A DNA stretch of 64,000 nt. Source: Bacilli bacterium. Its GTDB lineage: Bacteria; Bacillota_I; Bacilli_A; ML615J-28; CAG-698. The stretch is from the NCBI GenBank assembly GCA_050953065.1, contig JBMNLZ010000003.1, forward strand, positions 365,544 through 429,543. The letters are read 5' to 3'. A program made the translations under genes and the position numbers. The notes below the pieces were generated by a model. The model was not told where the DNA came from and made no database searches. It saw only the letters and a program-made list of their open reading frames with translations. Position 1 is the stretch's first letter. Every line of letters starts with the position of its first letter. Positions 18,052 to 52,503 of this stretch are shown one piece after another.

Positions 18052-18789
18052 TTATCCTTTTAAAAACTCAACTGTTTTTGTTAATAATTCACTTCTTACA
18101 GCAACATTATCATAACCATGGCCAGCATTTTCGATAACAATTAGTTTAGCTCCTTTAATTGCTTTAGCATATTTTTCACCGAAACTAACATTAACCGCTA
18201 AGTCTTCTTTACCATGAACTATTAAACAAGGACATTTGATTTTTTCTAAATTAAGATATGGTGAAAACTTTTTAAAACTTTTAACTAAGTCCTCACTCAT
18301 TTCAAAACCTAAAAAATCTACATTACCGTTTTCTAGTTTCGGATATTTTGAAAAATAATTTTCAACAATTTGAGCAATATTTCCAGCCGGAGACCATAAA
18401 ACTAATTTTTCTAAAATCTCAGGCATCTTGCTGGCCATATATCCAGCTATTGCTCCACCCATACTAAAACCTAACAAAATTATCTTCTTTATATTTTTTA
18501 TCTTAAAAGCATAATCAATTATTAATTTAGCATCTTCTACTAAAGTATCAAATGTAAATTCATGAAATGCTCCATCAGACTCAGCATTACCATAAAAATC
18601 AAATCTTAAAGAAGCAATATTTTCTTTTGCTAGAAGCTCACTAATTGTTCTAAAAATTCTACCATGTTCTGCTTTATGACCAGTAAAACCATGAAACATA
18701 ACAACAATTTTTTTTGAAGTTTCTGGATTATTAAGGTAGCCTCTTAAATAAACATTTTCTTTTTTCTTTAATTCAACATATTTTTGCAT
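18052..18789 (-). CDS. alpha/beta-fold serine hydrolase (esterase/lipase-like)
   Basis: Nucleophile elbow GFSMGG and the HGFTGH oxyanion region, with a C-terminal His (NAGHGY). It is the last gene of the murQ transcription unit. Confidence 0.8.
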   Translation of the reverse strand: MQKYVELKKKENVYLRGYLNNPETSKKIVVMFHGFTGHKAEHGRIFRTISELLAKENIASLRFDFYGNAESDGAFHEFTFDTLVEDAKLIIDYAFKIKNIKKIILLGFSMGGAIAGYMASKMPEILEKLVLWSPAGNIAQIVENYFSKYPKLENGNVDFLGFEMSEDLVKSFKKFSPYLNLEKIKCPCLIVHGKEDLAVNVSFGEKYAKAIKGAKLIVIENAGHGYDNVAVRSELLTKTVEFLKG

Positions 18790-18790
18790 C

Positions 18791-19699
18791 CTATTTTCCT
18801 ACCTCTTTTAAGGCATTCCTTATATGTCCTTTATTATTAGCCAAATGTTTTTTTATTTTTTCTAGATCTTTTATACCGCTTAAACTAGCAAATAAAGCCT
18901 GTTTAACAGTTTTATATTTTATTAAAGCTTGTTTTGCTTCTTCATTAGAAATTCCTAAAGCCATTTCTAAAATACCTTCTGCTCTTTTAACCAATTTTTC
19001 ATTTGACATTTGAACATCTATCATTAAATTTTGATATACTTTCCCCATTTTAATCATTGAAGCAGTTGATAACATATTACAAATCATTTTTTGAGCAGTA
19101 CCTGATTTCATTCTAGTAGACCCTGTAATTGGTTCTTCTCCTGTGATGGCCTCAATTGGATAATCAACAATAGAAGCTAATTTACTATTAAAAGAAGTTA
19201 CAATCGCTCCAGTTGTTGCACCAATACTTTTAGCATATTCAATTGCACTAATTACATAGGGAGTCCTTCCACTAGCAGCAATTCCAACTACTATATCATC
19301 TTTAGTTAAATTAATTTTCTTTAAATCTTCTATTCCTAGAATCAAAGAATCTTCAGCGCCTTCAACTGACTTTACTACAGCCTCAAACCCACCTGCTATT
19401 AAACATTGAATAGTTTCATAACTAACACCAAAAGTAGGCGGGCATTCTGATGCATCTAATACTCCAATCCTGCCACTTGTTCCAGCCCCCATATAGATTA
19501 ATCTTGCATCTTTATAAAAGGCTTCTACAATTTTATCAACTAATGGTGCAATTTGAGGTAAAGCTTTTTCAACTGCATAAGCAATAGTTTTATCTTCATT
19601 ATTAATTTTTCTTAAAATTTCAATTGTACTAACTACATCAATATCAAGTGTATTTGAATTTCTTTGTTCAGTTCCTATTTTTTTTAAATCTACTGCCAT
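18791..19699 (-). CDS. murQ: N-acetylmuramic acid 6-phosphate etherase
   Basis: GAGTSGRIGVLDASECPPTFGV, GIAASGRTPYV and TGSTRMKSGTAQKMICNMLST are near-identical to the conserved blocks of E. coli MurQ. The ATG at 19699 is preceded by GAAAGGAAG; the track start at 19702 is a TTG. Confidence 0.93.
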   Translation of the reverse strand: MAVDLKKIGTEQRNSNTLDIDVVSTIEILRKINNEDKTIAYAVEKALPQIAPLVDKIVEAFYKDARLIYMGAGTSGRIGVLDASECPPTFGVSYETIQCLIAGGFEAVVKSVEGAEDSLILGIEDLKKINLTKDDIVVGIAASGRTPYVISAIEYAKSIGATTGAIVTSFNSKLASIVDYPIEAITGEEPITGSTRMKSGTAQKMICNMLSTASMIKMGKVYQNLMIDVQMSNEKLVKRAEGILEMALGISNEEAKQALIKYKTVKQALFASLSGIKDLEKIKKHLANNKGHIRNALKEVGK

Positions 19700-20819
19700 C
19701 AAAATCTTCCTTTCTTCTAGGACTTGGTGTAATTTGGCCTAAAATTACTTCTTCTTTTGCATTTGTTACTGTAATTAGATTGCTAGGTTTATTATTTATT
19801 GTTTGATAACCTAAAACAACAAAAGCTAACGCTTCTTTAGAATCAGAAATATCTGATTTTAAAACTTCTATTTCCAATTCCTCTTTTAATCTTTTCATAA
19901 TGTAATCATTATGTGAGCCACCTCCACTAACAATTAACTTATTAAATTTTGGAATAAATTTTTTCAAATTATAAACTATTCCAAAAACTGTGGCTTCAGT
20001 TATTGTTTTAACAACATCATTTGGCTTTTCTTTATCTAAAGCATATTTAATAATTAACTCTTCCATAAAAGAAACACTATATTTTTCTCTACCAGTTGAT
20101 TTTGGTGGATTTTTTAAAATAAAATCATCTTCTTTTAAAGCGTTAAATAGTTTTTCTATTATTTTACCACTACTTGCTATTTCACCAGATTTATCATAAT
20201 TTTTATTAAAATATTTTTTTGTGAAATAATCTATCATAATATTGCCAGGTCCACAATCAAAAGCTATAACGTCTTTCCCACAAGCATTTTTTGGTAAATA
20301 TGTAAAGTTACTAATTCCACCAATATTAAGTAAAACCAAATCCTCTTCTTTACTTACATATAACATATATTCAGAAAAAGGTACTAAAGGTGCTCCTTCT
20401 CCACCTGCTGCAACATCCATCACTCTAAAATTTGAAACAGTTTTTATATTAGTTAAATAACTAATAACACTAGCTTCACCTATCTGTAATGTTGATGGAG
20501 TCGCCCCTTTTGGATCATGCCAAATAGTTTGGCCATGACTTGCAACAAACTCAATATCTTTGTAATCAAGAAGAGTCCCTTCTAATACTTTATCGATAGC
20601 TTCTTTAAAGTAATATCCTAGTTCAAAATTTAGACTTGATACTTCATCTAATTTTGCTGTATCTTTATTTAAATTACGCATTAATTTAGCTCTAAATTTA
20701 TCACTATATTCTAAAGTGATAAAATTAATAATTGAAAATTCTTCATTCAAATTAATTTTTACAAGGCAAGCATCAACTCCATCTAAAGAAGTTCCGCTCA
20801 TCAAACCTATGGCATACAT
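19668..20819 (-). CDS. anmK: anhydro-N-acetylmuramic acid kinase
   Basis: GLMSGTSLDGVDACLV, HGQTIWH, AAGGEGAPLVP, LNIGGISN, CGPGNIMID, PKSTGRE, VSGGGSHN: all AnmK blocks are present. The 3' end overlaps murQ by 32 nt. Confidence 0.93.
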   Translation of the reverse strand: MYAIGLMSGTSLDGVDACLVKINLNEEFSIINFITLEYSDKFRAKLMRNLNKDTAKLDEVSSLNFELGYYFKEAIDKVLEGTLLDYKDIEFVASHGQTIWHDPKGATPSTLQIGEASVISYLTNIKTVSNFRVMDVAAGGEGAPLVPFSEYMLYVSKEEDLVLLNIGGISNFTYLPKNACGKDVIAFDCGPGNIMIDYFTKKYFNKNYDKSGEIASSGKIIEKLFNALKEDDFILKNPPKSTGREKYSVSFMEELIIKYALDKEKPNDVVKTITEATVFGIVYNLKKFIPKFNKLIVSGGGSHNDYIMKRLKEELEIEVLKSDISDSKEALAFVVLGYQTINNKPSNLITVTNAKEEVILGQITPSPRRKEDFDGSRFKKNRN

Positions 20820-20834
20820 TTAATTTTCCTCTTT

Positions 20835-22397
20835 TTAAAAAACTTTAACTGGCAAAATTCCTCTAGTGCCAATTTCTTTTTTCAAAAACTTAACTAAAGT
20901 TCTAATAGAATTAGGAGTATATTCATATAAACAAGAATAATTTTTAACATTTCTCATTTCTAGAATATCATATGGATTTCTAAATGATATTACATAAACT
21001 TCCCTTCCCTTTTCTAGAAGAAGATTAACCAGTTTTGCTTGAGACGGAAAACTTTTTACATTATATGTACAAACTAATACCTCACGAGCTGAACTTGCTT
21101 TTTCTGCTAGTTTTTCTATCTCAATATCTGTCATAATTAAAGGCATTTCAAAACATTTAACCTTAGGCAATTCTTGTTTAACTACTTCAACAAGGTTTCT
21201 AGAAGAAAGCCTATCTTCTGCAATCGTAGTTGCAAAAGGTGTTGGAGCAAAAATTACACTATCATCTAACAGTTCAAATGAATTTCCCATCACTTTAGTT
21301 AAAGATTCATCAACTATTCTTTGAGCTACTCTTTTATGATTAAAATTGTCAACCTTTGCTTTTGCGTAATCAAAATCAAAATTATAATAATGCTTATTTA
21401 AAGATTTTATTGCTTCATTCTTAGCATCTAAAATACGCTTAACTTTTGCATCAATTGCATCCATCGGTATTTCATTATTTAAAACTGCTTTTTCTAATAA
21501 TTCTAAAGCTTTAATTTGCTTTGATTCAGTTTGTGAGATACATGCTAAATCAAGTCCTGCTTTAATCCCCATCACTGTTCCTTTTTCAGTTGTATAAATA
21601 TCATCAATTGCTTTCATTTCCATACAATCGCTTACTATTAAACCTTTAAATCCTAACTCTTTTCTAAGCAAGTCTGTTAAGACTTCTTTAGATAAAGTTG
21701 CTGGCATATTATTAACAGTATATTCTTTAAAATCGATATGAGCAGACATTATTGCTTTCACACCACTATCAATTGCAGCTTTAAAAGGCACTAATTCAAC
21801 TTCTTCAATTCGCTTCCTACTGTGAGTAATTCTTGGTAGACCAAGATGAGAATCAACATTTGTATCTCCATGTCCTGGAAAATGTTTTGCAGTTGCAATT
21901 ACACCTTCCTCTTGAATTCCGTTAATAAAAGAAACACCATATTGAGCAACCTTAGTAGGATTATCTCCATAACTTCTAACCCCAATTACAGGATTAGCAG
22001 GGTTATTGTTAACATCTAAAGACGGTGCTAAATTCATATTGATACCAAGGGCTAATAACTCCTCCCCCATAATCCTACCAATCTCATAAGCATCATCAAT
22101 ACAAGTTGCTCCAAGCGTCATATTCCCAGGGCAAAAAGTTGCTCCTTCCATAATTCTAGTAACCATTCCACCTTCTTGATCAATTGTAATCAGAGGGATT
22201 GTATTTGTTGCTTCTTTTACTTCTTTATGAATTCTTTGACATAATTCATATAATTGCTTAATTGATTTAATATTTCTCGCAAACAAAATAACATTAGCTA
22301 CCTTATATTCTCTAATCATTTTCTTTAAATGATCATTAAATTCATAGCCATGAAAACCTATAATTAATAACTGACCTAATTTTTCTTTTAAATTCAT
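20835..22397 (-). CDS. nagZ: GH3 beta-N-acetylhexosaminidase (NagZ-like), cytoplasmic
   Basis: IDQEGGMVTR and KHFPGHGDTNVDSHLGLP are GH3 NagZ motifs. No signal peptide is present. Confidence 0.9.
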   Translation of the reverse strand: MNLKEKLGQLLIIGFHGYEFNDHLKKMIREYKVANVILFARNIKSIKQLYELCQRIHKEVKEATNTIPLITIDQEGGMVTRIMEGATFCPGNMTLGATCIDDAYEIGRIMGEELLALGINMNLAPSLDVNNNPANPVIGVRSYGDNPTKVAQYGVSFINGIQEEGVIATAKHFPGHGDTNVDSHLGLPRITHSRKRIEEVELVPFKAAIDSGVKAIMSAHIDFKEYTVNNMPATLSKEVLTDLLRKELGFKGLIVSDCMEMKAIDDIYTTEKGTVMGIKAGLDLACISQTESKQIKALELLEKAVLNNEIPMDAIDAKVKRILDAKNEAIKSLNKHYYNFDFDYAKAKVDNFNHKRVAQRIVDESLTKVMGNSFELLDDSVIFAPTPFATTIAEDRLSSRNLVEVVKQELPKVKCFEMPLIMTDIEIEKLAEKASSAREVLVCTYNVKSFPSQAKLVNLLLEKGREVYVISFRNPYDILEMRNVKNYSCLYEYTPNSIRTLVKFLKKEIGTRGILPVKVF

Positions 22398-22404
22398 AAC
22401 TCAC

Positions 22405-23544
22405 CTAATATAATAAATATTTCTTTCTAGTTTTACCGAATTCTTTTGTTTCTTTATCAATAATTGAAAATAGCTTATCTATCTCATATTTATCTTCAGT
22501 CACATACCCACAACCAGTATTATATTCTAACATTCTAGGGCGTCCTTCTACATATGGTGGTAGGACTTCAAAATCATTCGGATACATTCTTCTTACAACA
22601 TAAAGCATTAACCATCCAACCTTAACAGCTTGAAATTTATTTTTATCTAAAACATGAACTTCAACACCACCACATAATTTCTTTTCATTTTTTGAAAATA
22701 CAGGTGTAAAATAAAGCGGTCGGAAATATACTCCAGGAAGCTTATAACTATTAAGTTTTTCCGCATAATCATTAGAATTTATCCAAGGAGCCCCAACATA
22801 TTGAAATGGTGCCGTAGTCCCTCGTCCTTCAGATACATTAGTTCCTTCAAAAATACAAGTTGCATTATAAACAACAGCCGAAAGCGGTGTTGGAAGGTTA
22901 GGTGAAGGCATCACCCAAGGAAGAAGAGTTTCTGAAAAATACATTTCTCTTTTATAATTTTTCATCAAAATCATATGAAGTTTACATCCGATTTCATATT
23001 CTTCATTAAACAGCTTAGCAAGCTCTGCAATAGTTAAACCATGACGTTGTACAATTGGATAATATCCAACAAAAGAACGATATTCTAAATCTAAGATATT
23101 TCCTTCAAAATCTTTAGCATTAACCGGATTTGGCCTATCAAAGATAACAAACTCTTTATCATATTCTTTACATGCCATCATAGCATAAGCCATTGTATAG
23201 ATATATGTATAAAATCTAGATCCAGCATCTTGAATATCCATACATAAAATATCAATCCCATCCATCATTTCTTGAGTTGGCCTTCTAGTTTGTCCATATA
23301 AACTATGAACAATACAACCACTTTCTGGATCAAAATAAGTTTCTAATTTTTCACCAGCTTGAATATTTCCTCTAACGCCATGTTCTGGCGAAAAAAGTGC
23401 TACAAGATTTGTTTTTTCTTTTAAAACTTCAATTGAAGATCTAAAATCACTTGTCATTCCAGTTGGATTTGTAATTAAGCCAACTCTTTTACCTGAAAAA
23501 AGATTTAAATATTCACCAATTCTTTCAATCCCTAATTTTACCAT
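22405..23544 (-). CDS. DUF1343 family protein (YbbC/NamZ-like exo-beta-N-acetylmuramidase candidate)
   Basis: KRVGLITNPTG...LFSPEHG...DIQDAGSRFYTYI is typical of DUF1343. The B. subtilis member ybbC/namZ sits in the MurNAc recovery operon. Confidence 0.82.
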   Translation of the reverse strand: MVKLGIERIGEYLNLFSGKRVGLITNPTGMTSDFRSSIEVLKEKTNLVALFSPEHGVRGNIQAGEKLETYFDPESGCIVHSLYGQTRRPTQEMMDGIDILCMDIQDAGSRFYTYIYTMAYAMMACKEYDKEFVIFDRPNPVNAKDFEGNILDLEYRSFVGYYPIVQRHGLTIAELAKLFNEEYEIGCKLHMILMKNYKREMYFSETLLPWVMPSPNLPTPLSAVVYNATCIFEGTNVSEGRGTTAPFQYVGAPWINSNDYAEKLNSYKLPGVYFRPLYFTPVFSKNEKKLCGGVEVHVLDKNKFQAVKVGWLMLYVVRRMYPNDFEVLPPYVEGRPRMLEYNTGCGYVTEDKYEIDKLFSIIDKETKEFGKTRKKYLLY

Positions 23545-24244
23545 TTTCTTCCTCTCCTTCTAAATCAAATTTATCGACTGTTTTTATATCATCTTCATTA
23601 TCAGATAAATACCAATATACTCCCCTTGTTAAGTTATAAGAAACAAAAAGCGGTCCACTAATACCAATTAAAAACCAGAAAGGTATTAAAAACTTAACTA
23701 AAATCGCTCCTATACTTAAAGCCCACACTAAAAATAAAATAAAGGTTGTAAAGAAAAATTTTAAACACATATAAAAACTCATTTTTAATGTATCTTTAAC
23801 AGAAAAGTTAAAATAAGTCATCACCATTGGTAAATGTATTAACATTAGCCCAACAATAAACATACAAAACAACATATAAAAAAAACCAACTGCATAGACT
23901 AAACTAAAATCTTTAAAACTAAAATTAGCCTCTAACAAACTAGGTGCATAATACCACACAGCAAAACCTAAAATTAAAAAAATACTTAAAAATATTAAAG
24001 TAATAAAAATTGTTTTTTTAAAATCATATGCCATATTCTTAAAATAAATTTTAAAAATATTACCACTTTGTTTACCTTCTTTAAAATCTTTTATAGTTCT
24101 AAAAGTAGCAAGATATGATGGAATAAAACCTATAAAAGCAGTTACTGCCGAAATAAAAATTATAATTACATTCATAACTATCAATCGCCAAAGCCAATCA
24201 ATAAAACTAAAGCCTCTGCTATTGACAAACTTTTCCATATCCAT
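23525..24244 (-). CDS. DUF624/YesL-like polytopic membrane protein
   Basis: Six predicted TM segments. The N-terminus FIDWLWRLIVMNVIIIF... resembles YesL-type proteins that accompany CUT1 sugar ABC operons. It overlaps the next gene by 20 nt. Confidence 0.65.
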   Translation of the reverse strand: MDMEKFVNSRGFSFIDWLWRLIVMNVIIIFISAVTAFIGFIPSYLATFRTIKDFKEGKQSGNIFKIYFKNMAYDFKKTIFITLIFLSIFLILGFAVWYYAPSLLEANFSFKDFSLVYAVGFFYMLFCMFIVGLMLIHLPMVMTYFNFSVKDTLKMSFYMCLKFFFTTFILFLVWALSIGAILVKFLIPFWFLIGISGPLFVSYNLTRGVYWYLSDNEDDIKTVDKFDLEGEEENGKIRD

Positions 24245-24310: not shown

Positions 24311-24338
24311 AAAAAACTGTGTCTTGCGACACAGTTTT
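24311..24338 (-). terminator. rho-independent terminator after the binding-protein gene
   Basis: AAAACTGTGTC/GACACAGTTTT stem with loop TTGC, followed by T7 on the minus strand. Confidence 0.75.
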
Positions 24339-24348
24339 CATTATTATA

Positions 24349-25998
24349 TTATCCAAATTTTCTAAGTAAAGCAGCTTCAACAACTGGTGCCACTGTAGAC
24401 AATGTTTGTTGATAGTCTCCACCTTGGATAACTGTTCTTAAAGCAGGGCCTAATCCATCAGGTTGTGTAAATGAATATACACCTTCAAGTGGATCATAGA
24501 AATATCTTAAGTTAACTGGATTATCACCTTTATCATTAACATACATAATAGCCTTAACGCTTTCTGGGTCATCAGTTAATCTTTGAGCATTTTGTAATCT
24601 CAAGTCATACTCATCATAACCAGGAGCATTTAGAACGTTTTCTCTAGTTAACAAGTACATTTCATTAATAGCACGATAAACTGCTTCTTGGTCAGCATCA
24701 CGTCCAGTAGCCATAATGTAAACAGCCTCATCTGGCATCGCTACTCTAACGTCTGCTTTTGACATTCCATCAGCATATGGGAATGGAACATAACCAATAT
24801 CAAATAAACTATCACGATAAGTTTTCCATCTATTTTCAGCATTTAAGAACCAGAATTGTCCTGGACAGAAAATTGCATTTCCTGTATTAAATGCTACTGA
24901 ACCAGCATCATGATTCATTGCAGGATCGAATGCGTTTGCTGCATAGATATCTGTTAATATTTGAGCTGCATTAACACAGTTTTCATTTTGATAGTCAACG
25001 ATTAAGTTGTCAAGGTTAGCAACTTTAACACCAGAAGAAATACTCATACCATACCAGTAATAAATTCCATGGCCTGATAATGCATATTGTCCTTCTTCAC
25101 TCATTTTAGCTTGAGCAGCTAATGCCCATGCTTTAAAATCTGAATATGTCCATTCATCATCATTGAATTTCTTAGCAGGTGTATCTAATTCAAGTTGATT
25201 TACTAAGTCTAAGTTATAGAATAAACCATTAATTAATCCAGATCCAGCATTTGTCATACCATATAATTTTCCTTTATATGTACAAGCTTGACGGAATGCA
25301 GCATCCATCTTATCTTCACCATAAGTTCCATACAAATCAGTTAAATCAACTACAGAACCACCTTCAACAAAATCAGGAATCCAGTCACTTCCAACAATAT
25401 AGAAGTCTGCTTCAGGAGTTCCTAAAGAAGCTTGTAAGTTGATATAGTCAATACGAGTTTGTCCCCATTCAGCTCCAGCTGGATAGTCAATAACTGTAAT
25501 ATCACAGTTATACATTTCTTTTACAGCAGTGAAAGCAGCTTTCTTAGCTTCCTTATCACTTGCAGCATAGTCTTCTTCATTGTTTGCATTACGATGGAAA
25601 GGATCATATTCGTTTTGCGCCTTTGCCATAATTGTAATTACATAACCTTGTAAGTCAGGGCGATCACCATCACCAGTACCAGTTCCTCTAACTGTAATTA
25701 AAACTGGTTGTTTCAAATCTGGATTAGCAACTGATGTAGCAGTGATTGAAACTCTACCCGCTGAGATACCTTTAACTAATCCTGTGTCAGTAACAGTAGC
25801 AATTGCAGCATTACCGCTTTCCCATGTTACACTTTGATCAGCTTTCGCAGGTGTAATTTTTGCAGTCAATTGAGTAGTAGCACTAATACTTACTGATAAA
25901 TTACCAGTGATTTCAATTGCCTTAGGTTTTGCTTTTTTACATCCTACTAAAGCGAATAAACTTACCATTAATAATGGTACAATAAGCCATTTTTTCAT
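24349..25998 (-). CDS. lipoprotein: N-terminal Big_2 domain fused to a family-1 (CUT1) extracellular solute-binding protein
   Basis: Lipobox LFALVGC|KK. The Big_2 block is VTWESGNAAIATVTDTGLVKGISAGRVSITAT, followed by a G/D linker and then the SBP_bac_1-like body. RBS is GAGGAGG. Confidence 0.85.
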   Translation of the reverse strand: MKKWLIVPLLMVSLFALVGCKKAKPKAIEITGNLSVSISATTQLTAKITPAKADQSVTWESGNAAIATVTDTGLVKGISAGRVSITATSVANPDLKQPVLITVRGTGTGDGDRPDLQGYVITIMAKAQNEYDPFHRNANNEEDYAASDKEAKKAAFTAVKEMYNCDITVIDYPAGAEWGQTRIDYINLQASLGTPEADFYIVGSDWIPDFVEGGSVVDLTDLYGTYGEDKMDAAFRQACTYKGKLYGMTNAGSGLINGLFYNLDLVNQLELDTPAKKFNDDEWTYSDFKAWALAAQAKMSEEGQYALSGHGIYYWYGMSISSGVKVANLDNLIVDYQNENCVNAAQILTDIYAANAFDPAMNHDAGSVAFNTGNAIFCPGQFWFLNAENRWKTYRDSLFDIGYVPFPYADGMSKADVRVAMPDEAVYIMATGRDADQEAVYRAINEMYLLTRENVLNAPGYDEYDLRLQNAQRLTDDPESVKAIMYVNDKGDNPVNLRYFYDPLEGVYSFTQPDGLGPALRTVIQGGDYQQTLSTVAPVVEAALLRKFG

Positions 25999-27019: not shown

Positions 27020-27020
27020 A

Positions 27021-34638: not shown

Positions 34639-34649
34639 AAACATCCCTC

Positions 34650-37045: not shown

Positions 37046-37057
37046 TTCAATTCACCT

Positions 37058-38572: not shown

Positions 38573-38586
38573 CTTGTCCTCCTTTC

Positions 38587-39663: not shown

Positions 39664-39677
39664 TGATCTTCTCCTTT

Positions 39678-44617: not shown

Positions 44618-44656
44618 AAAAACTCCATTTTGCTATATAAATGTATTACTCTAATT

Positions 44657-44685
44657 ATTATATAACAAAAAGCGTTTTTATTCAA
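44657..44685 (-). promoter_or_regulatory. promoter of the nine-gene GH20/transporter operon
   Basis: Minus strand: TTGAAT, 17 nt, TATAAT. Confidence 0.55.
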
Positions 44686-44780: not shown

Positions 44781-44808
44781 AAAAAGCAAGGTTTTAAAAC
44801 CTTACTTT
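44781..44808 (-). terminator. terminator overlapping the stop codon of the 44802-46142 gene
   Basis: AAGTAAGGTT/AACCTTGCTT stem (one G-U pair) with loop TTAA, followed by T5 on the minus strand. Confidence 0.6.
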
Positions 44809-46142
44809 TCAAATTTTATTGTTATAACAGGCCTTATTCCAATAGTCGAATAAGCATTGTTAAAGCCTGTAACACTAACCTTACCATCAAAGAAAACCCC
44901 TGATAAATATTGCATTGTAAAACCAGGTGATCTTGAGAAATATTTTCCTTGATTAGTAGAAGAATTTTCAACACCTGTTTTAATTGCAAACTCAGTATTA
45001 TAAGCAATCCTATTAGAATCTGCTTCATCTGTTTTTGTTTTAAATCCAAAACGCTTTCTAATCAAATCATTGTATGATAACAAATAAACATAATCTTGTG
45101 TATCATCACCTTCATTAGCAGCATAGGCAGGATAAGAAATTCCTTTATTAGAAACGGTTGTTAAAACAATCCCACTTTTTTCGCTACTACTAAATGAAGC
45201 ATTATAAAAATCATTGTTTAACCAAAATCTTAAATAACTATTCTTCCAAGTTTTATCGTTATTATCAACAATTACAATTTTATAATTAACAACTGTTGTT
45301 TCTTCTGGATGTTCTTTTGTAGGGCCACTTCCAGTTATTGTTACTTCACCTTTTGAAATTGCATTTACCATTACTTGTACTTGAGCTTTTAGTTCTCCTT
45401 TTACTCCATTAATTACCCAATATCCCGCTTCATCAATTTCTAGTTCAGCGCTAGTTGCTTCTCCTACTGGAACATATGTATTTTTACCTTCAATCCACCA
45501 ATTGTTATCAGAGCCAACTGTAGCTTTAATTGTATCGATATTTTTACTTACTAAAGCAAGATTTTCATCACTTGAGGTCCAAGTAGAATTTACTAAATCC
45601 ATATTAGTAGCCCCTATATAAATACTTCTTGTTTCTCCGATTCCAAATAAATAATTATGATAAGAAGCTTTAGAATCTAATATTTTATCAGATACAAGAA
45701 CCGCATTAACCCCATCAATACTTAAAATTTTCCATTCAATTGAATCAACTAAGAAAAACTCTCTTGATTCAATGTAGGTTTCTTCTCCTTCAACTACTTC
45801 TCTTGTAAAAGTAGAAACTTTAGCATAACGATGTCCTTCATATGGGTAATATCCATAACTATCAGCAAGAATTGTCTCTTCATCAATTCCAGCATTTAAC
45901 GATGCAATTATTTCATCATCTGTTACTAATCTTTGAGGATATTCACCATAAAACATTTTACTATAAGTTACAGTATTTTTCTCTACATCAATAATTGGAT
46001 TATGATATCCTGCATCAAAATAATACGTTACCTTTTCTGGAGTAGTTATTGCCTCAGGATCACTATCAACAGGGCTTTTATCACAAGCACTAAGTACTAA
46101 TAATAAAACTATAATCAATGAGCAAAATAATCTCTTCTTCAT
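44802..46142 (-). CDS. lipoprotein of unknown function (Big_2-like middle, DUF6273-like C-terminus?)
   Basis: The start MKKRLFCSLIIVLLLVLSAC|DKS at 46142 has RBS AGAGG. The C-terminus ...YFSRSPG...GKVSVTGFNNAYSTIGIRPVITI resembles the DUF6273 pattern as I recall it. Confidence 0.72.
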   Translation of the reverse strand: MKKRLFCSLIIVLLLVLSACDKSPVDSDPEAITTPEKVTYYFDAGYHNPIIDVEKNTVTYSKMFYGEYPQRLVTDDEIIASLNAGIDEETILADSYGYYPYEGHRYAKVSTFTREVVEGEETYIESREFFLVDSIEWKILSIDGVNAVLVSDKILDSKASYHNYLFGIGETRSIYIGATNMDLVNSTWTSSDENLALVSKNIDTIKATVGSDNNWWIEGKNTYVPVGEATSAELEIDEAGYWVINGVKGELKAQVQVMVNAISKGEVTITGSGPTKEHPEETTVVNYKIVIVDNNDKTWKNSYLRFWLNNDFYNASFSSSEKSGIVLTTVSNKGISYPAYAANEGDDTQDYVYLLSYNDLIRKRFGFKTKTDEADSNRIAYNTEFAIKTGVENSSTNQGKYFSRSPGFTMQYLSGVFFDGKVSVTGFNNAYSTIGIRPVITIKFEK

Positions 46143-46212
46143 TTTATTACCTCTAAACAAATTTATTTGATAACTCATTTTAACAAATATTTAAACAATT
46201 AGCAAGAAAAAG

Positions 46213-46242
46213 AAAGATAGTCTAATTTATTAAACTATCTTT
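46213..46242 (-). terminator. terminator after the GHL10 gene
   Basis: AAAGATAGT/ACTATCTTT stem with a 12-nt loop and a T-rich tail on the minus strand. Confidence 0.6.
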
Positions 46243-46253
46243 TTAATTTATAC

Positions 46254-47558
46254 TTAAACTGGCTTTACTTCTTTTGTCCAAATGGTTTTTAATAATTTCC
46301 TACCTTCAACAAGGGCAACAACATCTTCTTTAACAAAAGAATTATAAGTAAAATAAATTGTTCCAGAAATATTGTCATAATTTTGATTATACCTAAGTTG
46401 ATTAATTATCTCTTCTGGATTACTCCAATTTCCTTTATCGCTATAGCGATAAAATGCTTGACCAATATATAATTTCGTATTAGTTTCTTTACAAATTCCA
46501 CTCCACCATTTTACTAAATCAGCATATTTTACTAAAGTGATTTCTTCTAAAGAACCATCTTCTTTTGGTTTAGAATTATCTAAATCAAAATAAACTTGAG
46601 GTACTACGTAATCAATCCATTTTTCTTTCATCCATAAGTAAACATCTGCATAAAGTCTATCATAACATTGCAAGCATTTCTCATGATTATCAGACCCTTT
46701 ATCCCAACCACCAACTCCAGATTCAAAATATTTTGAATGAGTTCTAAAAATACCAAAAGGACTGATTCCAAATTCTACCTTTTTAGGAAGTCTAGCTAAC
46801 TTATCATGAATAAGTTTAATCATACGATTAACATTGTCTCTTCTAAAGTCACTCAAAGATTCATCATTTTTCTTCCATTTTAAATATTTTTCTTGTTCTT
46901 TATCATCACAAATTTCCTCATAAGGATAAAAATAATCATCGATATGAACAGCTTTTATATCATAGTTTTCAGCAATTTCTAAAACTGAATCAGAAACAAA
47001 TTCCATTACTTCTTCACTTGATGGGTCTAGAATTAGTTTTGTTTCTGAAGTTTCAATTACTAAATCAGGACGCTTGCGAGCAAAGTTTTTCTCACTTAAT
47101 GTTTTTAAAAAGTCATCTTTATTAGTATTTAAATCTTTTAATCTTTTTTGACAAACACGATATGGATTAATCCAAGCATGAACTTCAATGTTTTCCTTTT
47201 TAGCTTCTTCTATAAAGAAACCAAAAACATCAAAGCCAGGATATTTATCCTCAATTCCAGTAATATATGCACTCCAAGGATTTAACTTTGATTTATAAAA
47301 TGCATCATTTGTTGGTCTTGCTTGAAAAATAACTGTATTCATTTTATATTCTTTAACACGTTTTATAACACTTTTTAAATATTCTTTATAACTTTCAACA
47401 CTAGTCATTTTAGCTACATCAATATTAGCAACAGTCGAAAACCAAACACCACGCAATTCTTCTTGCTTTTCTTTATATTCATCTGGTATTAAAACAGCCT
47501 CATCGCTTCCATAATAAGTAACAAAACCTTCTTTTTTAAACTTAGCAATTTTTTTCAT
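46254..47558 (-). CDS. GHL10/DUF187 (YngK-like) glycoside-hydrolase-like protein, no signal peptide
   Basis: ELRGVWFSTVANID, HAWINPYR and KAVHIDDYFYP are the characteristic GHL10 blocks. Confidence 0.78.
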   Translation of the reverse strand: MKKIAKFKKEGFVTYYGSDEAVLIPDEYKEKQEELRGVWFSTVANIDVAKMTSVESYKEYLKSVIKRVKEYKMNTVIFQARPTNDAFYKSKLNPWSAYITGIEDKYPGFDVFGFFIEEAKKENIEVHAWINPYRVCQKRLKDLNTNKDDFLKTLSEKNFARKRPDLVIETSETKLILDPSSEEVMEFVSDSVLEIAENYDIKAVHIDDYFYPYEEICDDKEQEKYLKWKKNDESLSDFRRDNVNRMIKLIHDKLARLPKKVEFGISPFGIFRTHSKYFESGVGGWDKGSDNHEKCLQCYDRLYADVYLWMKEKWIDYVVPQVYFDLDNSKPKEDGSLEEITLVKYADLVKWWSGICKETNTKLYIGQAFYRYSDKGNWSNPEEIINQLRYNQNYDNISGTIYFTYNSFVKEDVVALVEGRKLLKTIWTKEVKPV

Positions 47559-47559
47559 T

Positions 47560-48252
47560 TTATATCTCCTTATTTCTTATAAATTTTTGATAGTCTTCAA
47601 CTGCAAAAGCAGCAGCATTTTTCGTTTTATTTAAAGCACCCCTTACAAAAGATAAATGCGTATAATAATCATAATATTTAAATGAAGGACTATTCATAAT
47701 AAACCAATGTTTTTGAATTGCTTTACACCATAAATCATATCCTTCAGTCCCATCAATATAAACATATGGAACAAAGCCATCTCGATCTTCCCAGTTTTCA
47801 CAGTAATATATAGGAGCATAATGTCTTTCACCTTCTACCTTATCGCCCATATCAACGCCAGCATAAAAAGCTGCATCAACTACGTTTAAATAAGTATTTC
47901 TATGATCTTTATGCATACTGTTTTTCCAATGCGTAAAGATAGCACTTGGTTTATATTTTCTAATTAAACTAGCAATTCTAAACTTAACTTCATCATTAAC
48001 TGGTAACTCTCCATCAGGATATTCAAAAACAATTGCATCCCCTTTTAACATACGAGCAAATTCGCTAGCTTCTTTTTCTTTTTGAAGCCTATATTCTTCT
48101 ACACTCATACCTTTAGGATTACCACGCTCTCCTCCAGTTAAAGCAATAGTTACAATTTTATTTCCCTTTAAACTTTCAGTAGCAAGAATTAACCCTGCCG
48201 TTAATTCCATATCACCAACATGGCCACCAATTGCTAAAAATGTTTTACTCAT
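47560..48252 (-). CDS. PIG-L/LmbE family N-acetylglucosaminyl deacetylase
   Basis: LAIGGHVGDMELTAGL...HKDHRN are the PIG-L zinc-site motifs. Confidence 0.85.
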   Translation of the reverse strand: MSKTFLAIGGHVGDMELTAGLILATESLKGNKIVTIALTGGERGNPKGMSVEEYRLQKEKEASEFARMLKGDAIVFEYPDGELPVNDEVKFRIASLIRKYKPSAIFTHWKNSMHKDHRNTYLNVVDAAFYAGVDMGDKVEGERHYAPIYYCENWEDRDGFVPYVYIDGTEGYDLWCKAIQKHWFIMNSPSFKYYDYYTHLSFVRGALNKTKNAAAFAVEDYQKFIRNKEI

Positions 48253-48255
48253 AGA

Positions 48256-49239
48256 TTATAAATCCTTTCTTAAAATCGCAAAAGATTGCACTAATCTAAA
48301 ACCTGCATAAAAATAAAGATTTCTTGCAGGATTTTCACTACCTGTAAAAAGTGTCATAAACTTAGCACCATTTTGTTTTGAAATATAACACAAATAACAA
48401 AATAGCGTTTTACCTAATCCTCTTCCTTGAACTTTAGGATGAACTCCTACTCCATCAAAATGCCCTCTCCCACCATCCTCAGTATAAACAGCACCAGTCC
48501 AGCCTAAAATTTCTCCATCCTTTTCAACAATTAGCATCGGTTTTGGATCTTTTTTTGCTAGATTATTTTCAGTTACTGCTTTCCAACCAGGATTATTTAA
48601 TGCCTCAAACAATTCATTAAAACCATGATGTTTTTTAGAATCATACATTGTTATATTATAACCATCAGCTTTATTTTGTTCAATTTGTTCTACTACTTTT
48701 TGTGGTAATTCATAATTTTGTAAGTCTAAGAAATAACCATCTAATTGTCCATTATTTGTATAACGATTATTCATAAACAAAAAATAATATTTTGAATTAT
48801 AAGGAATCGCTGGAGCCCCACCATGATAGGCATCCTCATTTGGAATTAACCATTTAAAATTAACTGGATTATAAAACATTAATCTAACAAACTTTTTACC
48901 CTTGTCTTTCAAAAAATCTTCTAAGGCTTTTAAAACAAGTGAACCATAACCATTTTTTTGATGTTCATTTTTAATAAAAACACATGTAATAAAACCAGGA
49001 GTTTCCTCAATGTTTTCATCATTTTTATTAATCATTGCATTCCCATAACCAATTGGTTCTCCTGCTAAAGTTATAGTCAAACTGCCTTCAGAATCATAGT
49101 TAGAATTTTTCATAAAAGTTTGTTTAAATAATTCAACTGTAAAAGGAGCATAAACTGAATTTCCTACTACATCACTATTCCAAATTGAAACTAGCGTTGA
49201 TACATCTTCATCTTTAAATTTTCTAATTTCCATTAACAT
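48256..49239 (-). CDS. two-domain GNAT family N-acetyltransferase (paralogue of 26093-27019)
   Basis: Two GNAT cores are present (HQKNGYGSLVL and VQGRGLGKTLF). Its architecture matches the other double GNAT. Confidence 0.8.
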   Translation of the reverse strand: MLMEIRKFKDEDVSTLVSIWNSDVVGNSVYAPFTVELFKQTFMKNSNYDSEGSLTITLAGEPIGYGNAMINKNDENIEETPGFITCVFIKNEHQKNGYGSLVLKALEDFLKDKGKKFVRLMFYNPVNFKWLIPNEDAYHGGAPAIPYNSKYYFLFMNNRYTNNGQLDGYFLDLQNYELPQKVVEQIEQNKADGYNITMYDSKKHHGFNELFEALNNPGWKAVTENNLAKKDPKPMLIVEKDGEILGWTGAVYTEDGGRGHFDGVGVHPKVQGRGLGKTLFCYLCYISKQNGAKFMTLFTGSENPARNLYFYAGFRLVQSFAILRKDL

Positions 49240-49268
49240 ATATCTTTTCTCCTCTAAGTTTATTTTTT

Positions 49269-50336
49269 TTAAGTAAAGTTAGCGATTATATAATTTCCAA
49301 TTTTACTTCTAAAAGGAATTATCTTATTGTTTTCTCTTGTTGGATGAACTCTATTACTTAACATACAAAAAGCAATTTTATTATCTCTATCAATAAATAA
49401 ATTAGTCCCCGTAAAACCAGTATGTAAAATTGTATTAGGACTTGCTAAGTCTCCACATGATGGATAATCACTCTTTAAGATCCACCCTAACCCTCTTTTA
49501 CTACCAACTAAACTAATTCCTTCTTTTTCTTCTACTTGTGGGGTAAAAAGCAAATCAATACTTGCTTTAGATAAAATGCGTCTACCTTTATATACTCCAT
49601 TATTTAAAATCATTTCCATAAAGTTACCAATATCATCTGCTGTTGAAAATACTCCAGCATGTCCTGCAACACCACCTAAAATATAAGCTTTTTCATCATG
49701 AACTTTTCCACGTAATAAATCCTGACAAATAGCATCATTTCTTTTTTCAGTTGGAGCACATCTTTCAGTATTTTTAGGATTATATGTTGTATCTTTCATA
49801 TCAAGTTTTGAAAAAACATATAATTTAGCTGCTCTATCTAAACCCATTCCTGAAACTGTTTCAATTAGTTTCCCCAGCAAAATAAAACCGATATCTGAAT
49901 ATATTATCTTTTCACTTCTTCCTGCTTTAAGTGGTACTTTATAAGCAAAATCAAAAACCTCTTCAGGCTTTGCTAGTGTATTAGCTTTAGGAATATCAGG
50001 TACTAAACCTGAAGTATGAGTCATTAAATCAAAGATAGTAATATCATCGTTTTTAAAATCAGGCAAGTATTTACTAACACTATCATAAAGCCTTATTTTA
50101 CCCGCTTCTAATAATTGCATTAAAAGTGTAGTTGTAGAAACAACTTTCGAAACTGAAGCCATATCATAAATTGTATTAATATAATTTTCTTCCTTTTTAG
50201 GAAGCAACGCTTTATACCCAAAAGCTCCAGTATAACGCCTCTTTCCTGCAATCAAACAATAAGTCGCACCGGGAAAAACACCATCTTTAACAGCTTCTTC
50301 CATCAAATCATTAAACCCAATCATTTTAGAATTCAT
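49269..50336 (-). CDS. beta-lactamase-fold serine hydrolase (AmiE/YbbE-like MurNAc-L-Ala amidase candidate)
   Basis: SxxK motif MASVSKVV and YSD (YxN-like). No signal peptide is present. The ATG at 50336 is preceded by AAGGGGA and overlaps the upstream stop. Confidence 0.78.
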   Translation of the reverse strand: MNSKMIGFNDLMEEAVKDGVFPGATYCLIAGKRRYTGAFGYKALLPKKEENYINTIYDMASVSKVVSTTTLLMQLLEAGKIRLYDSVSKYLPDFKNDDITIFDLMTHTSGLVPDIPKANTLAKPEEVFDFAYKVPLKAGRSEKIIYSDIGFILLGKLIETVSGMGLDRAAKLYVFSKLDMKDTTYNPKNTERCAPTEKRNDAICQDLLRGKVHDEKAYILGGVAGHAGVFSTADDIGNFMEMILNNGVYKGRRILSKASIDLLFTPQVEEKEGISLVGSKRGLGWILKSDYPSCGDLASPNTILHTGFTGTNLFIDRDNKIAFCMLSNRVHPTRENNKIIPFRSKIGNYIIANFT

Positions 50337-52503
50337 AAACTTTCCCCTTAAATCTATTATAAAAATTATCAAATGTGATTTTTTTAATTACATTATCACT
50401 ATAGCCTTTAACACGAAGCCTTTCAATTAAAAGATTAATTTCAGTTACTTTAGAAATCTCTTTTGTATTAGAACTTGGAAAATCATCCAAATAATCCATA
50501 AAGTCTAACCCTAAACATACATTATCAATCCCAAGTGCATTAATAGCATATTCAATATGTTTAATAAACATATCAATACTTTTATCTTCTTTTGAAATGA
50601 AATTTCCAACTAAAGTTAAACCTAATAAACCATCGGCTTCTTTTAATGCTTTTAATTGAGCATCATCTAAATTTCTTTTATGATCACATAGACTTCTAAT
50701 ATTTCCGTGTGAATAAATAATATTTTTATTTGTTAGTTTTAAAACATCAAAAAAACTTTGATAATTTAGATGAGCTAAATCAATTATCATATCAAGTTTT
50801 TCCATTTTTTTAATTAAATCTTTTCCTTTTTCAGTTAAGCCTCTTTCAGGATTGCCCTTTACTCCAGTAGCATAATCATTTTCTTCATTCCATGTTAACA
50901 TTGCATGACGAAAACCTAATTTATATAAAGTATCTAAATCATTTATGCTTTTTAAATTTCTTAACCCTTCAAAACCTAAAATCAATTTAAAATCAACTAA
51001 TAATTTAAAATCAATTTGAGCAAGAGCCTTTTTAGATGCTTCAATTAAATCAAATTCATCAGGCGAATATAGTGTCCAAAGTCCACCTTTAACTGATGTT
51101 TCTGATAATTGTTGCAAGTGAAAATCAAATCTATTTTCAATTCCCATTTTAGCCTTATCATATAAATCATATAAGATATCAGTGTGAGTATCAAAGATAG
51201 GCAAACTTTTTTGATTAAAACTAGATAAAAGTTTATCATAACTTTCTCTTTTAATTGCTAGATTAACGTTATCCTCTTTTACAAAAACAACAGCTGGTCT
51301 AACATGAGAATTATAATTCATAGACATTGAATATCCATATGCTCCAGTTGAATAAACAACTAAAATATCTCCTCTTTTAAAACTAGGCACTTCTACTCCT
51401 TGAGCTATGATATCACCACTCTCGCAACAAGGTCCAACAATATCACATTTAATAGTTTTTAACTCATTCATCTTATTAGCTACATCAACACTATATTTAG
51501 CTTGATATAAAGCAGGCCTAATATTATCATTCATTCCACCATCAACTGGTAAATATATTTTCTTATTATAAGTTTCTTTCAAATCACCTATTGTATAAAG
51601 TGTACTACAAGCATCGCCTACAATACTTCTGCCTGGTTCAATCATTAAAGTATTTAAAGCAATTTTAAATTTATTAGTTAAATCTTCTACTTCTTTTACA
51701 ACTTCTTTTAAAGTTTTTTCCAAATCAATTTCAGTATCTGTTTTTAAATATTTAATTCCAAAGCCTCCACCTAAATTAAGAACCTTCGCCTCAAAGTCAT
51801 ATTTTTCTTTTACATCTTTTAAAAACTCTACCATTGTTTTAGCTGAATTAATAAAAGAATCAGGAGTTGTTATTTGAGAACCAATATGAGCATGAAAACC
51901 ATCTAATTCAATATAAGATGCATTTTTATAAAAGTCAATTATTTTTTCTATTTTTGCCTCATCAAAGATTGACTCTCCAAATTTAGAATCAACAGATGAT
52001 GTTTGAATATATTCATGAGTATGAGCTGAAATTCCAGGGTTTATTCTAAATAAAGTTTTAACTTGTTTTTTGTTGATTCTAGCAATTTTTTCTAATCTTT
52101 CTAACTCTGGAATATTGTCTACAATAATATATTTTACTCCTAATTTAACTGCAAATTCTAATTCTTCATCCGTTTTATTATTTCCATGAAAAACTGCTTT
52201 AGAAAGAGGAAAGTTAGTTTTATGTAAAATATATAAATCTCCATAACTAACACTATCAATCCCAACATTATATTCTAATAAAATATCATTTAGATAACTT
52301 GAAAGAAAAGCTTTAGATGCATAATATATTTCACAATTAAACTTCTTACTTTTAAAGTTATTAATAAAAGTAGATATTTTATTTCTCAAATGCAATTCAT
52401 CAAAAACCATTAAAGGAGTCCCATAAATTCTTGCTAAATCTTTAGCAGATTTTTTACCAAAATATAATGCGTTTCCTTTAACACTCATTCCTAATGTTTT
52501 CAT
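50326..52503 (-). CDS. fusion protein: diaminopimelate decarboxylase (LysA-type, PLP fold III) + M19 membrane-dipeptidase-family domain
   Basis: The N-terminal ~425 aa carry YASKAF (PLP Lys), HAHIGSQ, LGGGFG, EPGRSIVG, CCESGD and GAYGYSM. The C-terminal ~300 aa carry IFDTHTDILYD...LTWNEEN...DLAHLN...SHGNIRSLCDHKRNLDD (M19). The ATG at 52503 has RBS GAGGA; the track start is a GTG. Confidence 0.88.
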   Translation of the reverse strand: MKTLGMSVKGNALYFGKKSAKDLARIYGTPLMVFDELHLRNKISTFINNFKSKKFNCEIYYASKAFLSSYLNDILLEYNVGIDSVSYGDLYILHKTNFPLSKAVFHGNNKTDEELEFAVKLGVKYIIVDNIPELERLEKIARINKKQVKTLFRINPGISAHTHEYIQTSSVDSKFGESIFDEAKIEKIIDFYKNASYIELDGFHAHIGSQITTPDSFINSAKTMVEFLKDVKEKYDFEAKVLNLGGGFGIKYLKTDTEIDLEKTLKEVVKEVEDLTNKFKIALNTLMIEPGRSIVGDACSTLYTIGDLKETYNKKIYLPVDGGMNDNIRPALYQAKYSVDVANKMNELKTIKCDIVGPCCESGDIIAQGVEVPSFKRGDILVVYSTGAYGYSMSMNYNSHVRPAVVFVKEDNVNLAIKRESYDKLLSSFNQKSLPIFDTHTDILYDLYDKAKMGIENRFDFHLQQLSETSVKGGLWTLYSPDEFDLIEASKKALAQIDFKLLVDFKLILGFEGLRNLKSINDLDTLYKLGFRHAMLTWNEENDYATGVKGNPERGLTEKGKDLIKKMEKLDMIIDLAHLNYQSFFDVLKLTNKNIIYSHGNIRSLCDHKRNLDDAQLKALKEADGLLGLTLVGNFISKEDKSIDMFIKHIEYAINALGIDNVCLGLDFMDYLDDFPSSNTKEISKVTEINLLIERLRVKGYSDNVIKKITFDNFYNRFKGKVYEF

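Follow-up and report, generated by a model that had tools for sequence, protein, structure and literature searches.

The 64-kb window analysed here, the whole stretch of DNA taken from contig JBMNLZ010000003.1 of a metagenome-assembled genome (MAG), holds at 18052–52515 a locus of 25 genes for cell-wall and amino-sugar breakdown and for transport. All of them lie on the minus strand, and the G+C content of the window is ~30%. The genes were called from Pfam and NCBIfam profile searches and the NCBIfam scores were set against the curated cut-offs. MurQ, AnmK, the first of two GH3 proteins, NagB and the LysA half of a LysA::M19 fusion score above the NCBI equivalog cut-offs. Every gene named in the original prediction, which was made from the sequence letters and their open reading frames (ORFs), is present where it had been placed. 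The predicted start at 18052 also holds, but the predicted end at 52503 is the first ATG inside a GTG-started ORF (50326–52515). Judged by its gene families, the locus probably imports and catabolises exogenous wall fragments for sugar, lactate and lysine. The host is a low-GC, Mollicutes-related member of the class Bacilli from anaerobic digesters and sludge.

Two terminator-like hairpins on the minus strand, which like the promoter-like site named below are consensus matches only, suggest about three transcription units. One hairpin (24312–24339) has a 12-bp stem followed by a T run and lies downstream of a binding-protein gene, which suggests an operon boundary. The other (44781–44810) comes after the gene for a DUF6273 protein, with the promoter-like site at 44685–44657 behind it. 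By these hairpins, the central unit spans 24349–44617, including NagB, the second GH3 and the first ATP-binding cassette (ABC) system, and lies between the MurQ unit (18052–24244) and a third unit (44802–52515).

Export and anchoring were called by a heuristic of hydrophobicity and a lipobox regular expression, not by SignalP. The enzymes of the locus have hydrophilic N-termini and no export signal by this heuristic, as had been predicted. Five lipoproteins and several proteins with a single transmembrane (TM) segment occur among the binding and large surface proteins. A regular-expression scan of the window proteins found no LPXTG-type motif, and no wall-binding domain was seen on the window surface proteins or on a neighbouring amidase, so the predicted anchoring of the large surface proteins by lipobox or TM segments only is borne out as well. 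The transport genes are four ABC permeases in two pairs and two solute-binding proteins (SBPs). The gene order is kept over ~34 kb in relatives whose proteins are 34–85% identical (contigs L010, L018/L019 and L020), and hence the clustering is not chance.

The MurQ unit begins with a polytopic membrane protein of six hydrophobic segments (23525–24244), which matches DUF624 (PF04854) at threshold; a membrane protein is kept at this position in L010, in L018 and in a further relative, L009. Next comes NamZ (22405–23544; DUF1343/GH171, with NamZ_N and NamZ_C domains), a cytoplasmic protein without signal peptide from a family of exo-beta-N-acetylmuramidases (PMC8054146). It is followed by the first NagZ-type GH3 beta-N-acetylglucosaminidase (20835–22397; PF00933; NF003740, 219 bits against a cut-off of 207), which is cytoplasmic and has no signal peptide either. 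The Asp-His motif of NagZ, KHFPGHG....DSH, is present in both GH3 proteins of the locus.

The anhydro-N-acetylmuramic acid (anhydro-MurNAc) kinase AnmK (19668–20819; PF03702, E 1.5e-95; NF007148, 401 bits against 387) is the sole MurNAc-family kinase within the locus. When a genome collection was scanned with it, the only matches were at 42% (Kapaibacterium) and 33% (Planctomycetota), and the window's own genome was not among them. MurQ, the MurNAc-6-phosphate etherase (18791–19702; TIGR00274, 356 bits against 302), has SIS and GKRP domains, and its products are N-acetylglucosamine-6-phosphate (GlcNAc-6-P) and D-lactate. The last gene of the unit (18052–18789; Pfam Hydrolase_4 and Abhydrolase_1) encodes a cytoplasmic alpha/beta-hydrolase of the carboxyl-esterase type. 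Its closest PDB relatives are esterases, for example 7q4h and feruloyl/cinnamoyl esterases, and an esterase adjoins MurQ also in L010 and L018. At a guess, it may remove O-acetyl groups from MurNAc.

The third unit begins with the LysA::M19 fusion (50326–52515), which joins a diaminopimelate decarboxylase (LysA, residues ~1–432; TIGR01048, 417 bits against 298) to an M19 dipeptidase (residues ~439–729; PF01244, Peptidase_M19). The motifs EPGR and CESGD of LysA and HTD of M19, in the form HxD, are all present. Among the 150 matches listed from 1.84 billion representative proteins, one other protein matches both halves and the remaining long proteins match the LysA part only. An assembly error is ruled out by the identical junction in contigs of two independent studies and by the presence of the fusion in relatives. 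The fusion is thus real and rare, nearly unique.

The next gene (49269–50372), adjoining LysA::M19 also in L020, encodes a cytoplasmic serine hydrolase of the beta-lactamase fold (PF00144, E 3e-56) with SVSK and HTG motifs. Its top NCBIfam model is PBP4B/YfeW with 168 bits, which is under the cut-off. The fold behind its earlier label of AmiE-like is therefore present, but the assignment to the AmiE/YfeW (PBP4B) type is at family level only. We propose that it would act as a MurNAc-L-Ala amidase or a peptide-trimming enzyme. A double-GNAT acetyltransferase called by Pfam (B, 48256–49239) comes next. It shows only weak PDB similarity to GNATs, including glucosamine-6-phosphate (GlcN-6-P) N-acetyltransferase, and the similarity of the two double GNATs of the locus is generic. 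The PIG-L/LmbE-family de-N-acetylase behind it (47560–48252; PF02585) has an HKDH motif and weak BshB1 similarity and is 67% identical in L020; it could replace the missing NagA or have fragments with GlcNAc as its substrate.

The GHL10 protein of 434 aa (46254–47558; PF02638, E 2e-53) aligns over residues 27–427 with the lytic-transglycosylase domain of Clostridioides difficile Cwp19 (PDB 5OQ2) at E 4e-66. Experiments established Cwp19 as a lytic transglycosylase with 1,6-anhydro-muropeptides as its products (PMC6016235). GHL10 is without signal peptide or wall-binding repeats, and its N-terminus is hydrophilic even on the longest possible ORF. We propose it as a putative intracellular source of the 1,6-anhydro-MurNAc ends that AnmK needs. 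AnmK could then suffice as the only MurNAc kinase, because GHL10 would supply anhydro-MurNAc internally; relatives also keep MupG and a BadF-type kinase. The unit closes with a DUF6273 lipoprotein (44802–46178; PF19789; lipobox LSAC), which has no PDB match and whose gene is absent from L020.

The central unit carries two ABC systems. At its far end is the lipoprotein of system 1 (24349–25998; 549 aa; lipobox LVGC), in which an N-terminal Big_2 domain precedes SBP_bac_1, and the permease pair of this system (29306–30370 and 30318–31436; BPD_transp_1) is 90–92% identical in L010. Between them lie the second NagZ-type GH3, NagB and a GNAT protein. The GH3 (27730–29238; PF00933) is cytoplasmic and scores 204 bits against the NF003740 cut-off of 207, 3 bits under it. 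NagB, the GlcN-6-P deaminase (27021–27743; TIGR00502, 308 bits against 237), is the catabolic exit to fructose-6-phosphate. Double-GNAT acetyltransferase A (26093–27049), with two stretches of Acetyltransf_1, is kept in L009 and L010 and may, for example, re-N-acetylate glucosamine or muramic acid residues.

System 2 has a TM-anchored SBP of 1030 aa (39678–42770), whose binding domain (SBP_bac_8 and SBP_bac_1) occupies residues 653–935. Its N-terminal extension of ~650 aa has two weak modules like carbohydrate-binding modules (CBMs; CBM_35 E 2.6e-4, under the cut-off), and the protein is 49% identical in L019 and L020. The permeases of this system (37058–38572, DUF975 and BPD_transp_1; 38587–39663, BPD_transp_1) are 67–73% identical in L019. 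The DUF975 part of the former is an N-terminal membrane extension of ~170 aa, absent from the 332-aa orthologue in the distant relative L019. The GH20 beta-hexosaminidase (42767–44617; Glyco_hydro_20 and Glyco_hydro_20b) has no signal peptide and is cytoplasmic.

Three further proteins of the central unit are membrane-bound or exported. The DUF5696 protein (31438–34644; 1068 aa; PF18952, E 1e-119) faces outward with one N-terminal TM segment at residue 3. It has no PDB sequence match and six homologues by a word search, its AlphaFold2 model is unusable (pLDDT 39), and its position is kept in L010 and L019; it could be a surface factor that processes fragments or hands them over. The Yip1-family polytopic membrane protein (34650–35339; PF04893) is 53% identical in L019. 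The protein of 568 aa between Yip1 and the permeases (35339–37045) has a signal sequence and weak TPR and NHL repeats, is anchored by a TM segment at its C-terminus and is 41% identical in L019.

The relatives differ in how much of this order they retain. L010, with NamZ 85% identical, is a gene-for-gene match from DUF5696 to the esterase. The 273-kb JGI contig L018/L019, with NamZ 72% and DUF5696 34% identical, runs from GHL10 through GH20, an SBP of 1047 aa, two permeases, the TPR-like protein, Yip1, DUF5696 and two permeases, and on through GH3, NagB, a Big_2 protein, a membrane protein, NamZ, a GH3::MupG fusion, a BadF-type kinase, AnmK and MurQ to the esterase. Behind the esterase follow electron-transfer flavoprotein (ETF) beta and alpha and an FAD-dependent oxidase of the D-lactate-dehydrogenase type. 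Since MurQ releases D-lactate as a by-product, the presence of this oxidase nearby suggests catabolic use. The other end of the locus is seen in L020 (fusion 54% identical), in the order Dus, LysA::M19, the beta-lactamase-fold gene, a double GNAT, PIG-L, an S66 LD-carboxypeptidase of the LdcA family, GHL10, GH20 and SBP. L009 (GCA_028691315.1, 'Candidatus Izemoplasmatales bacterium') holds a core of GH3, NagB, GNAT, Big_2 proteins, NamZ, GH3::MupG, kinase and AnmK.

Some peptidoglycan genes thus lie in the relatives and not in the window. These are the GH3::MupG (6-phospho-N-acetylmuramidase), the BadF-type kinase, ETF-alpha/beta and the FAD oxidase at L018:11156–20862, and the S66 LD-carboxypeptidase at L020:7138–8076 between PIG-L and GHL10. 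Another gene stands ~3 kb past the window end (L012:2106–4112, ~66.5–68.6 kb in window numbering) beside DUF2207, LemA and L31. It encodes a lipoprotein of 668 aa with the lipobox IAGC, three atrophied Big_2 (aBig_2) repeats and a C-terminal Amidase_2 domain (MurNAc-L-Ala amidase), which is plausibly a surface enzyme that strips peptides from wall material, or else an autolysin.

Put together, these families outline a candidate pathway. At the cell surface, the Big_2-SBP lipoprotein and the CBM-like 1030-aa SBP would take soluble wall fragments, and the DUF5696, TPR/NHL, Yip1, DUF975 and DUF624 proteins and the Amidase_2 lipoprotein may assist. Since the enzymes are cytoplasmic and the uptake is by ABC systems, oligomers must be imported, predictably through the two permease pairs of the CUT1 type with an ATPase encoded elsewhere. 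Inside, the Cwp19-type GHL10 would cut the glycan strands as a lytic transglycosylase and leave 1,6-anhydro-MurNAc ends. GlcNAc would be removed by the two NagZ and GH20, terminal MurNAc by NamZ, and the stem peptides by the AmiE/YfeW-like hydrolase.

The released parts would then enter metabolism by two exits. AnmK would convert anhydro-MurNAc to MurNAc-6-P, which MurQ would split into GlcNAc-6-P and D-lactate. Once PIG-L, or a NagA from another part of the genome, had removed the N-acetyl group, NagB would yield fructose-6-phosphate and ammonium. On the peptide side, the M19 half of the fusion may trim the stem peptides and its LysA half may turn the released meso-diaminopimelate into lysine. 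The gene identities, the lack of export signals, the kept synteny and the fusion are observed directly. We infer the substrates, the order of these steps, the roles of the GNATs, the esterase, PIG-L and the DUF proteins, and the origin of the main substrate in other bacteria from the gene families and their arrangement.

The pathway resembles the B. subtilis murQ-murR-murP-amiE-nagZ-namZ operon in that MurQ, a NagZ with the Asp-His motif, NamZ/DUF1343 and a beta-lactamase-fold hydrolase, which is of the AmiE type at family level, are clustered. The original prediction had taken these four families for the cytoplasmic route of B. subtilis. In that species, however, AmiE, NagZ and NamZ are secreted, and MurNAc is taken up in free form by the phosphotransferase system (PTS) protein MurP under MurR control (PMC8054146), whereas the hydrolases here have no export signals and the importers are ABC systems equipped with giant binding proteins. 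MurP and MurR have no counterpart, as none of the window ORFs has a PTS or RpiR/HTH domain, and AnmK, GHL10, NagB, GH20, PIG-L, GNATs and LysA::M19 are added. The topology is inverted relative to B. subtilis, and MurP, MurR and the secreted hydrolases that define its operon are absent.

The Gram-negative anhydromuropeptide recycling (AmpG, NagZ, AmpD, LdcA, AnmK and MurQ) is alike in importing oligomers and in having cytoplasmic NagZ, an amidase, AnmK and MurQ, as well as LdcA in L020's copy of the locus. It differs in that ABC importers take the place of AmpG and an AmiE/YfeW-like hydrolase that of cytoplasmic AmpD. We propose that GHL10 makes the anhydro ends inside the cell and not in a periplasm, and the products would go to catabolism instead of Mpl-dependent re-use. 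AmpG, cytoplasmic AmpD, LdcA and Mpl are all missing from the window, and the nearby Amidase_2 protein is a lipoprotein. As to GHL10, its homologue Cwp19 is an autolysin with a signal peptide and three CWB2 repeats, whereas the window protein is the bare domain in a catabolic operon.

Tannerella forsythia scavenges MurNAc (NamZ1/2, MurT, MurK, MurQ and AmgK/MurU) from other bacteria's peptidoglycan, likewise via NamZ-family exo-muramidases and MurQ. Tannerella is walled and needs MurNAc for synthesis, whereas no MurK, AmgK or MurU is visible here and the ends are NagB and LysA. The logic of surface capture, oligomer import and internal exo-acting breakdown from one co-regulated block is also that of the 'selfish' uptake by the polysaccharide utilisation loci of Bacteroidota. 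These depend on SusC/SusD, an outer membrane and a periplasm; the window has no TonB-dependent receptor or SusD domain, and its transport is Gram-positive CUT1 ABC transport. In its working, the locus combines traits of the cytoplasmic pathway by which Gram-negative bacteria process anhydromuropeptides with those of an ABC-based locus for glycan utilisation in Gram-positive bacteria. No earlier account of such a locus from Acholeplasmatales or Izemoplasmatales turned up in our literature search.

The size of the locus, the two importers with elaborate capture proteins and the catabolic exits suggest foraging on exogenous fragments over recycling for re-synthesis. Foraging is also favoured by the lack of Mpl, AmgK and MurU in the locus and by surroundings with plenty of dead biomass. 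Near-identical DNA occurs in metagenomes of anaerobic digesters, bioreactors, activated sludge, biogas fermenters and some soils. In pig slurry, Acholeplasma or Acholeplasma-like bacteria were found by isotope probing to be dominant early consumers of 13C-labelled dead E. coli, the substrate within that biomass not being identified (PMC4628116). Wall-less Spiroplasma melliferum has murP, a minor precedent and the only one found for MurNAc use without a wall (PMC3563533).

Several observations weigh against uptake and catabolism of exogenous wall fragments. The cytoplasmic location of the enzymes comes from the export heuristic and not from a dedicated predictor. The locus has no ABC ATPase, NagA, MurNAc or GlcNAc kinase, PTS component or regulator, so MurNAc released by NamZ has no visible kinase there; NagA, the MurNAc kinase and the ATPase may be encoded elsewhere. 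The only ABC ATPase domains in the window belong to two adjacent half-size exporter genes at 5499–9161 on the minus strand (ABC_membrane and ABC_tran), which by their exporter type are not the missing importer ATPase. The amidase step depends on the family-level call of the beta-lactamase-fold hydrolase, the genes at 31438–44617 could serve another amino-sugar polymer, and part of the flux could be the cell's own turnover products if the cell is walled. Contigs from three sludge metatranscriptomes are spread across the whole locus and its flanks; they are compatible with transcription in situ but are weak evidence for it, as their depth is low and such libraries can contain DNA.

Whether the host itself has a wall is a separate matter, and the explanation by uptake and catabolism is independent of it. 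The original prediction of a salvage region whose imported fragments are dismantled in the cytoplasm stands, but its wall-less, Acholeplasma-like organism is unsupported by the features on which it leaned. The rRNA operon (10172–15019, minus strand) is confirmed, with 16S at 13486–15019 followed by tRNA-Ile, 23S, 5S, tRNA-Asn and tRNA-Glu. The small, 4.5S-type signal recognition particle (SRP) RNA (52609–52704, minus strand; RF00169, 46.1 bits against a cut-off of 40), which stands outside the pathway, is confirmed as well. Short SRP RNAs also occur outside wall-less taxa, and neither this RNA nor the lipobox and TM anchoring is diagnostic. Absence of sortase substrates does not discriminate, because walled ML615J-28 and RFN20 are also reported without sortases. 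The Mollicutes-like rRNA, the short SRP RNA and the anchoring fit the whole clade, walled members included.

The chance that the host is an Acholeplasma-like or Izemoplasma-like bacterium without a wall, so that the locus can only harvest the walls of others, is appreciable but clearly short of even. The nearest named homologues of Dus are from 'Bacilli bacterium' at 84% and then at 55–59%, together with 'Acholeplasmataceae bacterium' at 56–58%; those of NamZ are from 'Bacilli bacterium' at 67% and from 'Candidatus Izemoplasmatales bacterium' at 64%, which has the same core cluster. Cultured Izemoplasma isolates are wall-less by electron microscopy (PMC8397711). Besides the lipobox and TM anchoring without LPXTG or wall-binding domains in the window and its neighbouring amidase, it also speaks for a wall-less host that LysA is seen here only as a salvage-type fusion. 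Weak evidence in the same direction is that no wall-synthesis gene occurs in ~50 kb of flanks from the same or a closely related strain, a sample too small to mean absence. These flanks reach ~7 kb past one window end and ~9–18 kb past the other, with a separate stretch of 13 kb. They hold genes for trigger factor, ClpX, Lon, SecG, RNase R, SmpB, a 5'-nucleotidase, L31, LemA and DUF2207, the amidase lipoprotein and a defence island.

Published genomes pull the other way. Field et al. predicted that most species of ML615J-28 are walled, as are two RFN20 families out of four, and found sortases missing from both ML615J-28 and RFN20. They also describe a mix within Acholeplasmatales and report mur genes in 40–60% of Anaeroplasmataceae genomes (PMC10868615). 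The bioreactor 'Tenericutes' that Wang et al. (2020) placed with ML615 carry mraY and murG in 75% (bioRxiv 10.1101/2020.01.21.914887), and the peptidoglycan pathway is almost fully encoded in one gut genome of Izemoplasmatales (PMC7761423). On balance, we regard a wall-less host as possible but put it at distinctly less than an even chance. More tentative still is the full picture of a free-living wall-less relative of Acholeplasma and Izemoplasma that lives partly on other bacteria's walls. It would strip and capture fragments on a naked membrane, import oligomers, break them down by a cytoplasmic lytic transglycosylase, AnmK and MurQ, and obtain lysine via a clade-specific LysA::dipeptidase fusion, its lineage having kept and expanded the digestion machinery without peptidoglycan of its own.

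If the host has a thin wall, which the literature makes plausible for the lineage, the locus might simply recover its own turnover products. MurQ, AnmK, NagZ and, in the relatives, LdcA are classical recycling enzymes, and the Amidase_2 lipoprotein could be an autolysin. However, the described recycling sets have few genes against the 25 here, among which are two importers with giant binding proteins that bear CBM-like and Ig-like (immunoglobulin-like) modules. NagB, LysA and the relatives' D-lactate dehydrogenase and ETF route the products to catabolism and not to UDP-MurNAc-peptide, with none of Mpl, AmgK and MurU in the locus, and in B. subtilis, the one Gram-positive recycling system consulted, these enzymes are secreted and MurNAc enters by a PTS (PMC8054146). 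Mainly ordinary self-recycling is therefore unlikely.

A composite locus appears somewhat less likely again. In such a locus, only the two outer units, MurQ-AnmK-NagZ-NamZ and LysA::M19-AmiE-GHL10, would be peptidoglycan-specific, and the central system of DUF5696, Yip1, giant SBP and GH20 would import chitin oligomers, poly-N-acetylglucosamine (PNAG) or glycoprotein glycans. Indeed, no peptidoglycan-specific marker lies within 31438–44617 (DUF5696, Yip1, TPR, DUF975, giant SBP and GH20), GH20 and NagZ act on many GlcNAc glycosides, and the hairpins divide the region in three; the central unit so defined also has NagB, the second GH3 and ABC system 1. Against this, the central block stays between both peptidoglycan blocks in relatives down to 34–53% identity, and no chitinase, chitin-binding domain or GlcNAc kinase was seen in the locus.

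The imported fragments could instead serve to build the cell's own wall, as in Tannerella-type auxotrophs for peptidoglycan precursors. RF39, ML615J-28 and the RFN20 family CAG-631 have precursor pathways with gaps, which would require scavenged muropeptides (Field et al., PMC10868615), and NamZ enzymes do such work in Tannerella (bioRxiv 10.1101/2021.12.02.470905). However, MurNAc is destroyed by MurQ and diaminopimelate by LysA, and AmgK/MurU, MurK and Mpl are none of them encoded in the locus, which makes this use very improbable. A purely chitin-directed locus is rejected, since MurQ, AnmK, NamZ, GHL10 and LysA here and MupG and LdcA in the relatives are peptidoglycan-specific.

The rest of the window and its surroundings add some features in their own right. 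All ORFs of at least 100 aa from 15306 to 63346 are on the minus strand. In the rRNA operon, tRNA-Ile is the sole tRNA of the 16S–23S spacer, without tRNA-Ala, and tRNA-Asn and tRNA-Glu lie behind 5S. A Fic-domain gene (2502–3732, minus strand) is split into ORFs of 135 and 268 aa by a one-base difference in an A-run, while a JGI contig of the same organism (L016:1937–3166) has it intact with 409 aa. Either the MAG has a homopolymer error here, in which case it would seem to come from long reads, or the frameshift is real.

Beyond the locus, at 52913–61191 on the minus strand, two giant lipoproteins with Big_2 repeats surround a cytoplasmic glycerophosphodiester phosphodiesterase. One has 1130 aa with a metallophosphoesterase domain like purple acid phosphatase, and the other has 1334 aa with 10 Big_2 repeats and a Listeria-Bacteroides repeat. 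Together they look like a surface module for scavenging phosphodiesters, possibly of nucleic acid, teichoic acid or phospholipid. The defence island is variable and was seen in other strains (L026 and L027) near 5'-nucleotidase and AAA_14 genes. It has Thoeris ThsA (Macro), three ThsB/TIR genes, HsdM (a type I restriction-modification methylase), AAA_13 and DUF4238. Its region is at most 9 kb from SecG in the ENA strain L022, while by accession numbers the two are ~60 genes apart in the MAG, where the region precedes the window by ~60 gene numbers.

Much carbon and nitrogen in digesters, sludge and sediments is bound up in peptidoglycan, whose anaerobic consumers and their means are not known in detail. 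The locus offers a concrete, testable gene set for its anaerobic consumption in a widespread uncultured lineage. Unusual in it are the exo-lytic hydrolases that B. subtilis secretes being inside the cell, the cytoplasmic Cwp19-type enzyme together with AnmK, and the LysA::M19 fusion that ties stem-peptide breakdown to lysine. If the host is wall-less, a lineage without peptidoglycan synthesis would have kept and enlarged peptidoglycan catabolism as a foraging trait, which would give a mechanism for the finding that in pig slurry Acholeplasma-like cells consume dead bacterial biomass fastest. With a thin-walled host, the locus would still be the Gram-positive counterpart of a polysaccharide utilisation locus, unusually elaborate and directed at peptidoglycan.

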